DNA of 11,597 nucleotides, taken from an archaeon. GTDB taxonomy: Archaea > Iainarchaeota > Iainarchaeia > Iainarchaeales > 1-14-0-10-31-34. The notes below the pieces were generated by a model, which saw only the letters and a program-made list of their open reading frames with translations, ran no database searches and was not told the origin of the DNA. Below, piece by piece: positions 123 to 11,535 of the stretch. Within the stretch, counting starts at the first letter, position 1. Each line of letters begins with the position of its first letter. The position numbers and the translations under genes were made by a program. The DNA is taken from assembly GCA_043815885.1 (NCBI GenBank), contig JBDRIL010000045.1:1-11597 (forward strand), read 5' to 3'.

Positions 123-154
123 GCAACAACCCAATTCATTATTATTGGCAGTTT

Positions 155-381
155 GTTTCGACGAAGTCGAAATCCTATTACCGACTGAAAGGAGGTAGTA
201 GTACACGCATGTAAACTGGGCGTGACAGTTTCCGAGCATAAGCGAGGAAAGCGTACCTCTGAACGAAAGTGAAGAGGTACCCTAAAGCGTAAACCGATTT
301 GCGGTTTTGCCGAAGGCAAGTCCTACTACTGACCGAAGGGAAGTAGTAGTACGTAGTGTAAACTGATAATATTCAGTTTTT
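155..381 (+). repeat. Three tandem ~75-nt modular hairpin units (C-A-B) abutting tRNA-Trp
   Basis: Units at 156-231, 229-307 and 307-381. Each has hairpin C (TTTCGAC-GAA-GTCGAAA; TTTCC-GA-GC-ATAA-GC-GA-GGAAA; TTGCC-GAA-GGCAA), hairpin A (8-bp stem-GA-2bp-GAA(A)-2bp-GA-stem), a spacer, and hairpin B (GT-AAACYG-loop-CRGTTT). Confidence 0.9.
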
Positions 382-5543: not shown

Positions 5544-5600
5544 GATTAAAACCTTTTAGTGCGAACTACTATTAAATAATTTACTTTTTCAGCTTTTTTA

Positions 5601-5658
5601 TTTTTTGAAACTGGTTTCTTTGGGGTCCTAGCACTTTCTTTTTGAAAAAAAGGGCTAG
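5601..5658 (-). repeat. tRNA 3' trailer repeat (copy after tRNA-Pro-GGG)
   Basis: 54/58 ungapped identity to 11464-11521; hairpin CTAGC..CTTT...AAAG..GCTAG followed by GACCCCAAAGAAA. Confidence 0.9.
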
Positions 5659-5733
5659 TGGGGCCGCCGAGATTTGAACTCGAGTCGGTAGCTCCCCGAG
5701 CTACAATGCTAGACCAGACTACACCACGGCCCC
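5659..5733 (-). tRNA. tRNA-Pro(GGG) with C33
   Basis: Acceptor GGGGCCG/CGGCCCC+A; anticodon arm GTAGC-TCGGGGA-GCTAC; T arm TCGAG-TTCAAAT-CTCGG. Confidence 0.92.
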
Positions 5734-5872
5734 AAAACCGCAAATCGGTTTACGCTTTTCACTACTACCTCCTTTTAGTCGGTAGTAGGACTTGCCTTCG
5801 GCAAAACCCCACTGTCAGTTGACACAAACCGTCACGCCCGGTTTATGTGCGTGTACTACCTTTGGTAGTACG
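5734..5872 (-). repeat. Modular hairpin array (A-B-x-C-A-B) abutting tRNA-Pro(GGG)
   Basis: Exact matches to the Trp array: AAAGCGTAAACCGATTTGCGGTTTT (284-308) and GGTTTTGCCGAAGGCAAGTCCTACTAC (303-329). Confidence 0.9.
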
Positions 5873-6102: not shown

Positions 6103-6279
6103 AATCAGAACCTACGGTTCCGATACCTCCCTTACGGAAGGATGCCTTTTCCTTTTTGATCAACCTTTTTTCCAAAAAGGCTGTCCGATACCTTTTCCTT
6201 AATCAGAATCTATGGTTCTGATACCTTTTCCTTTTTGATCAACCTTTTTTCCAAAAAGGTTGTCCGATACCTTTTCCTT
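6103..6279 (-). repeat. Tandem ~79-nt direct repeat made of hairpins, abutting tRNA-Pro(TGG)
   Basis: Copies 6103-6200 (with a 19-nt extra hairpin) and 6201-6279 are otherwise near-identical. Confidence 0.9.
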
Positions 6280-10254: not shown

Positions 10255-10941
10255 ATGGATAAAGTTGCAGAATTAAGGCCCTTTCAGAAAAGGGTTGAAT
10301 TGCTCGTGAAAGTAGTGGAAAAAACAGAAGAAAGAGAAGTTACCTCAAGACTGGACAATACCACTCACAGGGTATCAGAAGCAGTAGTGGGAGACGAAAC
10401 AGGAACAATACTTCTCACTCTGTGGGATGACCTCATAGACAAAATAGAGCAAGATAAAGTGTATAAGGTAACAAACGGTTACACCTCTCTCTTCAAGAAC
10501 ACCCTTAGACTGAATATCGGAAGATACGGTACAATAGAGGACTCAAGCGAAGAAATAGGAGAAGTAAACTCTGACAATAATGTATCAGAAAAAGAAATTC
10601 AGACAGGAGGAAGGTTCGGAGGAGAAAGAGGCGGTGGCTTCAGAAGAGGATTCGAGAAAAGAGAAAAACCAAAAAGAGAGGAAACAGAAGAAGAAGACAC
10701 AAGCGACGAAGACAAAGAAGATGACGAAGAAAGCGATGACGACTCAGAAGACGAACCAGAAGCTGATACAGAAGAAGACACTGCTTCTGAAAAAAGCAGT
10801 GGCGCAAAAGATAAAAAGAACAAGAAAAAAGAAGCTGCTGAAGAAACAAGCGACGAAGACAAAGAAGAAGACGAAGAAAGCGATGACGACTCAGAAGACG
10901 AACCAGAAGCTGATACAGAAGAAGACGAAGAACTGAAATAA
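10255..10941 (+). CDS. ssb: Single-OB-fold ssDNA-binding protein with RGG and acidic tail (probable start ATG 10255)
   Basis: MDKVAELRP...VSEAVVGDETGTILLTLWD...NGYTSLFKNTLRLNIGRYG resembles the Sulfolobus-type SSB OB fold; GGAGG SD at 10241-10245. Confidence 0.9.
   Translation: MDKVAELRPFQKRVELLVKVVEKTEEREVTSRLDNTTHRVSEAVVGDETGTILLTLWDDLIDKIEQDKVYKVTNGYTSLFKNTLRLNIGRYGTIEDSSEEIGEVNSDNNVSEKEIQTGGRFGGERGGGFRRGFEKREKPKREETEEEDTSDEDKEDDEESDDDSEDEPEADTEEDTASEKSSGAKDKKNKKKEAAEETSDEDKEEDEESDDDSEDEPEADTEEDEELK
10699..10926 (+). repeat. 81-nt in-frame direct repeat in the ssb tail
   Basis: 10699-10779 vs 10846-10926, 80/81 identical. Confidence 0.95.
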
Positions 10942-10980: not shown

Positions 10981-11270
10981 TGCATACCAAAGGCATGCAT
11001 TGTTTTTTTGATAAAACTCCCAATTTGAGTATAACTCAAATGGGTCCCTTTGAATCCTTAGATTCAAACAGGGTTTCTTAAAAGTTTTTTATTTATCTGC
11101 CTATTTACATAAACCTTAAAAACTGATTCCATTTCAATTACTAGAGTGATGGACTCATGAGAAGGGATCGACAAATACTGGCGGAAAATTGATTTTTCGG
11201 ATTCTATTATTGAATTAAATAATAATAAAAACGTTTTCTGGGGTGATAATTCTTTCAACACTTAAATTAA

Positions 11271-11389
11271 GTTTTCCTAGCGAAAGCAAGGAAATCCTAC
11301 TACCGAACGAAAGTGAGGTATTAGTGCGAAGCACGTACTACTGACCGAAGGGAAGTAGTACACTGACGTAAACCGGCAGTGGCGGTTTC
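11271..11389 (+). repeat. Modular hairpin array (C-A-C-A-B) abutting tRNA-Ile
   Basis: Contains an exact 25-nt match TACTACTGACCGAAGGGAAGTAGTA (11336-11360 = 324-348) and ends with AAACCG-GCAGTGG-CGGTTT one nt before the tRNA. Confidence 0.9.
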
Positions 11390-11463
11390 GGGCCTGTAGC
11401 TCAGCCTGGTTAGAGCATTGGTCTTATACACCAAGTGTCGGGGGTTCAAATCCTCCCGGCCCA
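11390..11463 (+). tRNA. tRNA-Ile(TAT)
   Basis: D arm GCTC/GAGC; anticodon arm TTGGT-CTTATAC-ACCAA (TAT 11425-11427); T arm GGGGG-TTCAAAT-CCTCC; acceptor GGGCCTG/CGGCCC+A with one unpaired base. Confidence 0.88.
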
Positions 11464-11521
11464 CTAGCCCTTTCTTTAAAAAAGAAAGTGCTAGGACCCC
11501 AAAGAAAGAAGTTTCAAAAAA
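11464..11521 (+). repeat. tRNA 3' trailer repeat (copy after tRNA-Ile)
   Basis: 54/58 identity to the reverse complement of 5601-5658. Confidence 0.9.
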
Positions 11522-11535
11522 GAAAGGGAATTTAA

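Follow-up and report, generated by a model that had tools for sequence, protein, structure and literature searches.

Hairpin islands and tRNA genes in the window

The stretch of archaeal DNA analysed here (11,597 nt in full, referred to below as the window) carries tRNA genes whose leaders are built of short tandem hairpins. An intron-containing tRNA lies on the plus strand at 382–524; it was missed by ARAGORN and was identified from an Rfam match (RF00005, 46 bits) together with its fold. Its intron of about 70 nt follows the anticodon loop, and its anticodon was read as CCA. The two GATGAC words of this intron recall the box C/D guide RNA of euryarchaeal tRNA-Trp introns. The other two tRNAs with such leaders considered here are tRNA-Pro(GGG) at 5658–5733 (minus strand) and tRNA-Ile(UAU) at 11389–11464 (plus strand). 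The anticodon UAU is unusual for tRNA-Ile in archaea, most of which use a modified CAU. Hairpin island 1 (150–381, plus strand) forms the leader of the tRNA at 382, island 2 (5734–5870, minus strand) that of tRNA-Pro(GGG), and island 4 (11270–11388, plus strand) that of tRNA-Ile.

The genome to which the window belongs amounts to 1.16 Mb in 62 contigs, with a G+C content of 36.8% and a completeness of 91.7%, and contains an archaeal RNase P RNA (117 bits) and archaeal rRNAs. Around 20 islands were found in it, each a tandem array of hairpins, 70–240 nt long, with loops that are often GAA or GNRA. The order of the units varies between islands, and the hairpin named B is usually the last one. 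Six near-identical B copies are spread over five contigs, and for eight copies of the B type the distance to a tRNA 5' end is about 2 nt or less. The gap separating B from the tRNA is too short for a promoter, and AT-rich boxes are located 5' of the islands; at tRNAs without islands, such boxes are found about 25–35 nt upstream. This arrangement suggests that transcription extends through the islands, which would then form long leaders.

Architecture of the B module

Island 1 opens with a hairpin of the TTTCGACG-AAG-TCGAAA type (155–173, plus strand, from the MFE fold), which is followed by the hairpin named A (175–201, plus strand; repeat family D16), folded as an 8-bp stem, a GA/AG internal loop, 2 bp and a GAAA loop. 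In each of the A hairpins at 175–201, 324–348 and 11336–11360, a symmetric internal loop of UGA/GAA with tandem G-A is followed by 2 bp and then by a loop of GAA or GAAA. At 175–201 the A hairpin ends 2 nt before the 5-nt spacer strand of the first B module, which by direct reading of 200–231 is AGTACACGCATGTAAACTGGGCGTGACAGTTT. In this module, a 7-nt loop is closed by the 6-bp stem S2, formed by AAACTG (213–218) and CAGTTT (226–231). The spacer strand CACGC (204–208) ends 4 nt before the stem and is complementary to loop bases 2–6, GCGTG (220–224), and these two strands make up the helix S1, with a covarying core of the inner three bases 206–208 and 220–222. Three connectors, all read on the plus strand like the helices, link the four strands: L1 (ATGT, 209–212), which is always 4 nt; L2, the single first loop base at 219; and L3, which consists of 1 nt (225) when all five pairs are formed and of 3 nt when the core alone is formed.

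Six B copies are present in the window, and three of them end 0–2 nt before a tRNA (that at 382–524, tRNA-Pro at 5733 and tRNA-Ile at 11389/11390). The earlier note on this DNA had proposed a pairing between the spacer and the B loop in a fixed register, and all of its coordinates, among them CACGC/GCGTG at 204–208 and 220–224, were correct on direct reading. The same CACGC/GCGTG combination recurs, as claimed, in the copy internal to island 2 (5826–5857, minus strand). The two-base-pair variant, CACTG at 11361–11365 opposite CAGTG at 11377–11381, is found in the matching register in the copy at 11357–11388 (plus strand), which ends at most 1 nt from tRNA-Ile(UAU). The 8-nt-loop module at 347–379, with its hairpin at 359–379, indeed keeps only two spacer-loop pairs, as the note had said, and stops 2 nt short of the tRNA that begins at 382. 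The AAA/TTT pairing described for both copies with an ATTTG loop is present, with AAA at positions -6 to -4, but it is indistinguishable from chance in such A-rich spacers. These copies lie at 278–307 (plus strand, hairpin 290–307, 5-nt loop), where AAA/TTT is the only pairing and is weak, and at 5735–5764 (minus strand, hairpin 5735–5752), 1 nt before tRNA-Pro(GGG).

Spacer-loop pairing in copies collected by their stem

Chance and selection are not distinguishable from the three informative copies of a single window, and further copies were therefore gathered by the stem alone. The pattern TAAACYG-N5-8-CRGTTT was searched in the window's own genome, in 8 more from its family and in a sample of 32 others from the order; a second search took in all 196 genomes of the order, and the flanks of the matches were fetched. 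The stem pattern is present in 8/8 of the other family genomes and in 12/32 of the sample from the rest of the order. After one of 119 matches was left out (L101, whose locus offers only 16 nt upstream), 118 matches with at least 20 nt of upstream sequence remained. These were divided without regard to the spacer: a match was called module-like when the 45 nt that precede the 9-nt spacer have an MFE of -8 kcal/mol or below. This rule yielded 61 module-like matches (56 distinct combinations of spacer and loop) and left 57 matches outside this class (55 distinct).

All three inner pairs (-4:2, -5:3 and -6:4, spacer to loop) are formed in 35/56 module-like combinations and in 10/55 of the others. 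When the loops were permuted within length classes 10,000 times, the count of combinations with all three pairs averaged 13.3 (sd 2.6) and never exceeded 24. The genome-wide comparison of spacer and loop with shuffled controls, for which the earlier note had asked, thus places the observed 35/56 far above chance. A register scan gave a sole peak, at the proposed register, and every other register reached at most 20/56; the two runners-up, at 20/56 and 12/56, correspond to the S1 helix displaced by one pair. Core pairing is missing from 22 module-like matches. Judged by eye, about half of these are antisense readings or non-modules, and the other half are true unpaired exceptions (L025, L067, L071, L074, L075, L078, L106, the ATTTG copies and the 8-nt-loop copy at 359–379). 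The ATTTG-loop class as a whole has 2–4 AAA/TTT pairs in five copies, which in A-rich spacers are not separable from chance.

Covariation of the two helices and spread across families

Pairing in S1 was analysed separately for two loop lengths by shuffle tests, which ignore the relatedness of the copies, and by controls with the partners slid along, which keep it. For the 7-nt loops (26 sequences, 22 distinct; 17 from the mechanical set and 9 added, with counter-examples among the added ones), 83.6% of the S1 positions are paired against 67.4% after shuffling, and the covariation score is 0.488 against 0.242; none of 500 shuffles reached the observed covariation. With the partners slid along, pairing in this set is at most 47%. 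For the 6-nt loops (34 sequences of the mechanical set, antisense and chance members kept), the corresponding values are 68.4% against 47.8% and 0.531 against 0.185, again with 0/500 shuffles reaching the observed covariation. Double changes occur in three of the five S1 pairs of the 7-nt-loop set and in all four pairs of the 6-nt-loop set. Of the 22 distinct sequences with 7-nt loops, 9 do not form the outer pair -7:5 and 4 do not form -8:6; double changes are almost absent from these two pairs, which are not supported by covariation. Three relatives have CACTG opposite CAGCG, which creates an A-C mismatch.

Eleven distinct, fully Watson-Crick types of the 3-bp core were counted across at least six families, including CGC/GCG, CTG/CAG, CAG/CTG, CCG/CGG and TCG/CGA as well as GCG/CGC, GTG/CAC, ACC/GGT and CGT/ACG. 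Compensation is also seen in S2, where the Y-R pair of the search pattern is UA or CG in 11 and 10 distinct sequences, respectively, and AAAC/GUUU changes to CAAC/GUUG in variants of the window's own genome; the remaining S2 pairs are fixed by the search pattern. One of these variants, on another contig and directly 5' of a tRNA, combines S1 CACGT/ACGTG with the compensated stem CAACTG/CAGTTG. Six families have module-like copies whose core is paired, namely the window's own and f16, f24, f25, f10 and f28. A tRNA-adjacent match of family f31 (L085) pairs AGA with TCT but fails the upstream-fold rule, and a search with the 7-nt-loop pattern across 215 genomes of the phylum added no convincing new lineages. 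Collectively, at the level of sequence comparison, the spacer-loop pairing is confirmed as real and under selection.

Geometry of the module and its strand of action

The four strands follow one another in the interleaved order S1a-S2a-S1b-S2b (columns 5–9/21–25 for S1 and 14–19/27–32 for S2 of alignment A1). A single palindrome is ruled out as the source of the pairing because the complementarity of S1 and that of S2 are interleaved, and the view of the earlier note that more than a simple palindrome repeat is involved holds, with covariation across at least six families. The register scan further showed that the connectors are constant: exactly 4 nt separate the spacer strand from the stem, and exactly 1 nt separates the stem from the loop strand. 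Beyond the 3-bp core, 2–3 loop bases are left, mostly AA in the 6-nt loops. The preceding helix ends 0–1 nt before the core in 25/39 paired copies and in 5/22 unpaired ones. With this spacing, the preceding hairpin, S1 and S2 could stack as one in the predicted secondary structure, ending at the acceptor stem where a tRNA follows.

In H-type knots, 2–3 nt can cross a helix of 3 bp, and 1 nt cannot cross a helix of 5 bp. The steric objection that the earlier note had raised against the 1-nt connector is accordingly fair for the 5-bp version in the window, but the 3-bp core of the relatives leaves 2–3 nt for the crossing. The same note had offered either a pseudoknot or a two-state switch; the interleaved and covarying pairing bears out the first part of this proposal, and the sequence evidence tends to favour the knot. 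The constant connectors, two helices with no nucleotides in common, the predominance of AA at the 3' side of 6-nt loops and the flush preceding helix argue for a compact H-type pseudoknot, in which both helices may form simultaneously as a rigid cap. At 200–231, the 5-bp spacer-loop hairpin and the B stem, calculated separately, are nearly iso-energetic (-6.0 and -4.4 kcal/mol), which leaves some probability to a switch in the window's own genome. In the relatives, the 3-bp spacer-loop hairpin alone is thermodynamically marginal (0 to -1.7 kcal/mol), and a switch would be the less economical account across the family.

The module appears to act as RNA on the strand that bears the GAA-type loops, which we consider the better reading. 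GNA triloops number 23 on the module strand and 6 on the opposite strand, and at the variable stem pair of module-like copies U-G occurs three times and C-A never. The wobble counts within S1 are mixed: G-U and A-C occur 11 and 5 times in the 7-nt-loop set, and 13 and 15 times over the four pairs of the 6-nt-loop set, or 10 and 6 times over the inner three pairs. A reading of the palindromic stem as an operator in double-stranded DNA was rejected because the loop varies in length from 5 to 8 nt and because the spacer-loop covariation would be unexplained in duplex DNA.

Placement of the modules near genes

The location of the module at tRNA 5' ends, which the earlier note had described as frequent, holds for the eight copies of the window's own genome mentioned above but is not exclusive, since other sites are used elsewhere. 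In relatives, the module adjoins the 3' ends of oppositely oriented tRNA genes (L044, L053, L106 and L107). The last of these, in another family, is also a tRNA-Ile(UAU), with a knotted module inverted at its 3' end. Antisense modules lie within tRNA introns, flush with the 5' exon, at L024 (G004) and at L098 (G108, in a tRNA-Arg(UCU)-like gene). Furthermore, modules occur in mRNA leaders, 5–12 nt before the start codon (L036 and L104), and between convergent ORFs (L019 and L022).

Two further islands of the window's own genome illustrate this range of sites. On contig C14 (17,428–17,621; 928–1121 of L004), an island fills the whole gap between the stop of an ORF and the convergent 3' end of the RNase P RNA; no gene lies downstream of it, and it terminates in B followed by TTTTT. 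On contig C49 (about 14,900–15,250, L013), two knotted modules and other hairpins apparently lie within an intron of about 190 nt in a tRNA-Leu(UAG)-like gene, and the acceptor halves TCCCGCC and GGCGGGA were read on either side of the island.

The placement of the module was also compared at an orthologous locus. The 494-aa protein encoded next to tRNA-Pro(GGG) has orthologues in 8/8 other genomes of the family, and ARAGORN found tRNA-Pro(GGG) upstream of the orthologue in 5/8; a 5' island was present in 0/5 of these. One of the five relatives carries a B-like module inverted at the 3' end of this tRNA. The absence of the 5' island and the one inverted module at this locus indicate that module placement turns over, and together with the six near-identical copies on five contigs, which point to recent multiplication, they suggest that the modules multiply and move.

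Relation to known RNA families and mobile elements

An Rfam search of the window, at the gathering score and at E ≤ 1, returned only the tRNAs and one chance-level match to an sRNA elsewhere in the window. Over 15 other island-bearing loci, a search at E ≤ 0.01 returned only tRNA, rRNA, RNase P and chance matches on tRNAs. Full-text searches of the literature, at the level of listings and abstracts, retrieved no account of an archaeal pre-tRNA leader module with a pseudoknot.

Classical H-type knots include the acceptor-arm knot of plant-virus tRNA-like structures and the knots of small riboswitches such as preQ1-I, and they place minor-groove adenines at 3' loop residues. The B module resembles them in the pairing of a loop with a flanking single strand, in its short and constant connectors and, for the 6-nt-loop class, in its A-rich 3' loop. 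Both the interleaved strands and the compensatory changes in both helices that characterise the H-type class were found here. Unlike in the classical knots, it is the 5' flank and not a 3' tail that pairs with the loop, and the stem is conserved in sequence whereas the loop helix varies; in addition, nothing indicates a ligand or tRNA mimicry, and no Rfam family matches.

Other structured RNAs were considered and rejected. In a kink-turn or K-loop, tandem sheared G-A pairs adjoin a 3-nt bulge or close a loop; the A hairpin, as read, has the symmetric UGA/GAA internal loop without a bulge, then 2 bp and the GAA/GNRA loop, and was not accepted as a kink-turn or K-loop. Hammerhead, H/ACA and pistol readings of the preceding hairpin were ruled out by eye against consensus features. 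HDV-like (theta) ribozymes consist of a nested double pseudoknot with five helices and a catalytic C, and this class was discarded as only one hairpin, S1 and S2 are present here and Rfam gave no match.

REP-like palindromes have been reported in archaea, and a paper on bacterial and archaeal REP elements does not mention pseudoknots (PMC12306157). The module is like the REP/BIME mosaic palindromic elements of bacteria in its many extragenic copies per genome, in hairpin units that come in variable order and in its location in transcribed spacers or between convergent genes; it is unlike them in its covarying pseudoknot, in its strong tie to the ends of stable-RNA genes and in the lack of a Y1/RAYT transposase in the window's own genome. 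The dispersed extragenic copies in mosaic hairpin order were found in the window's own genome in the form of the roughly 20 islands, and a search of the same genome (91.7% complete) for the Y1 transposase of RAYT/IS200 elements (PF01797) gave 0 matches. Three TnpB-like (Cas12f1-like_TNB) genes lie on contigs C38, C11 and C2 (L117–L119), two of them as 420-aa frames with near-identical tails. An origin of the module from IS200/IS605-TnpB ends (omega-RNA, PATE-like) was rejected, as no B-like hairpin occurs in the flanks of these three genes.

A candidate fold for the ends of stable RNAs

We propose that the module is an H-type knot that caps hairpin-built spacers, keeps the leader folded and leaves the RNA ends cleanly defined, a reading to which we assign a probability of about 0.5. 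In this model, loop bases 2–4 (up to 2–6 in the window's own genome) of a 6-bp hairpin, UAAACYG...CRGUUU, would pair with the spacer 4 nt upstream of the stem, and the knot would stack on the hairpin in front, serving as the usual last unit of the tandem-hairpin islands that fill transcribed spacers. The module would work as RNA on the strand carrying the GAA-type loops, with both helices together acting as a rigid cap that keeps the long leader self-folded and stops directly at the acceptor stem. This would give a clean definition to the RNase P cleavage junction or, with the module inverted, to the tRNA 3' end. The role of the module may thus lie in defining or insulating RNA ends. The modules would also multiply and move within genomes, so part of their conservation may serve the repeat itself. 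Counting against the model are the modules found away from tRNA 5' ends, the turnover at the tRNA-Pro(GGG) locus, the near-identical copies, the mixed G-U and A-C counts in S1, the true copies that lack the pairing and the marginal stability of an isolated 3-bp helix. A broader version of the proposal, in which the module is a portable end-definition handle, is tentative and, in our judgement, rather unlikely. In it, the preceding hairpin, S1 and S2 would stack as a single rod reaching the acceptor stem, and would mark the cut sites of RNase P (sense, 5') and tRNase Z (inverted, 3'), with the module also located at intron borders; if it holds, reduced archaea would assemble and reassemble the precursors of their stable RNAs from a common kit of folded spacers, and might acquire introns in the same way.

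The strongest competitor is a selfish structured repeat, that is, REP/BIME- or MITE-like DNA that multiplies and settles where it is harmless, in leaders, trailers, introns and UTRs, and whose fold is kept for spread as single-stranded DNA or RNA and not for any use by the host. With islands that number about 20 per genome and lie in various contexts and in both orientations to their neighbours, a shuffled order of modules, near-identical copies on different contigs, placements lost, gained or inverted at an orthologous tRNA locus, and G-U and A-C counts without a clear strand asymmetry, such an origin is a serious possibility, yet one we hold at clearly less than even odds. The 91.7%-complete genome offers no IS200/RAYT-type Y1 transposase, its TnpB-like ends are unrelated, and the loop types are strand-biased. 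Moreover, the stem sequence has been retained from family to family alongside compensated changes in the spacer-loop helix, and a constant stem combined with a compensated helix requires long-term selection on the fold. A selfish repeat and a host role are not exclusive of each other. The opposite extreme, in which no pairing is selected and the complementarity stems from a few founder copies or from template-switch repair of a quasi-palindrome, could draw on the relatedness of the copies, which the shuffle tests ignore, and on the presence of only two informative types within the window. It is largely refuted by the 11 Watson-Crick core types in at least six families, by the far lower values of the slid controls, in which kinship is kept, and by the matches without an upstream hairpin, only 10/55 of which pair; we regard it as highly improbable.

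For the two-state switch, a 5-bp spacer-loop helix closing an 11-nt loop would alternate with the B stem and so expose or hide a U-rich strand beside the tRNA. The nearly equal stabilities of the two hairpins in the window's own genome (-6.0 and -4.4 kcal/mol), the single nucleotide left to cross the helix when all five pairs are formed and the MFE fold of the whole island, which picked the spacer-loop hairpin, are consistent with this scheme. Set against these points, the two helices have no nucleotides in common and only the inner three pairs covary, the connectors are constant to the nucleotide, which a switch does not need, and the 3-bp hairpin alone is unstable in relatives (0 to -1.7 kcal/mol); we consider a switch quite improbable. 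Even less can be said for a small self-cleaving ribozyme that releases the adjacent RNA end, which a hairpin and a pseudoknot beside tRNA ends might suggest: there are only two short helices, no unpaired core is conserved apart from the stem, no Rfam ribozyme matches even at E ≤ 1, RNase P RNA is present, and the module also occupies sites that need no RNA end. Its probability appears to be very small.

The proposed capping knot would be a compact RNA fold, backed by evolution, that matches nothing in Rfam and sits at exact tRNA boundaries in very small archaeal genomes, where spare DNA is unexpected. A module that helps to define RNA ends would be a new cis element in tRNA maturation; a selfish one would represent a rare repeat family with a pseudoknot unit that moves among leader, trailer and intron positions, a movement that bears on the origin of archaeal tRNA introns. 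In either case, the 3-bp core is a clean mutable target for probing and RNase P assays.

Other repeats in the window

Several further repeats accompany the tRNA genes of the window. A 66-nt trailer lies 3' of tRNA-Pro(GGG) (5597–5662) and of tRNA-Ile (11460–11525), with 92% complementarity between the two sites; it consists of a hairpin, CCCTTTCTTT-AAAAAA-GAAAG..., followed by words of the AAAGAAAGAAG type. Island 3, read on the minus strand, contains tandem 60-nt units at 6141–6200 and 6220–6279 that are 97% identical and belong to the tRNA-Pro(UGG) leader. The flush hairpin at the end of this leader is of another kind, the GGAACCGTAGGTTC type, and elsewhere in the genome also precedes tRNA-Val(GAC) and tRNA-Ser(GCU). 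At 10663–10926, an 87-nt direct repeat in two copies with 98% identity lies within an ORF and encodes an acidic, D/E-rich stretch.
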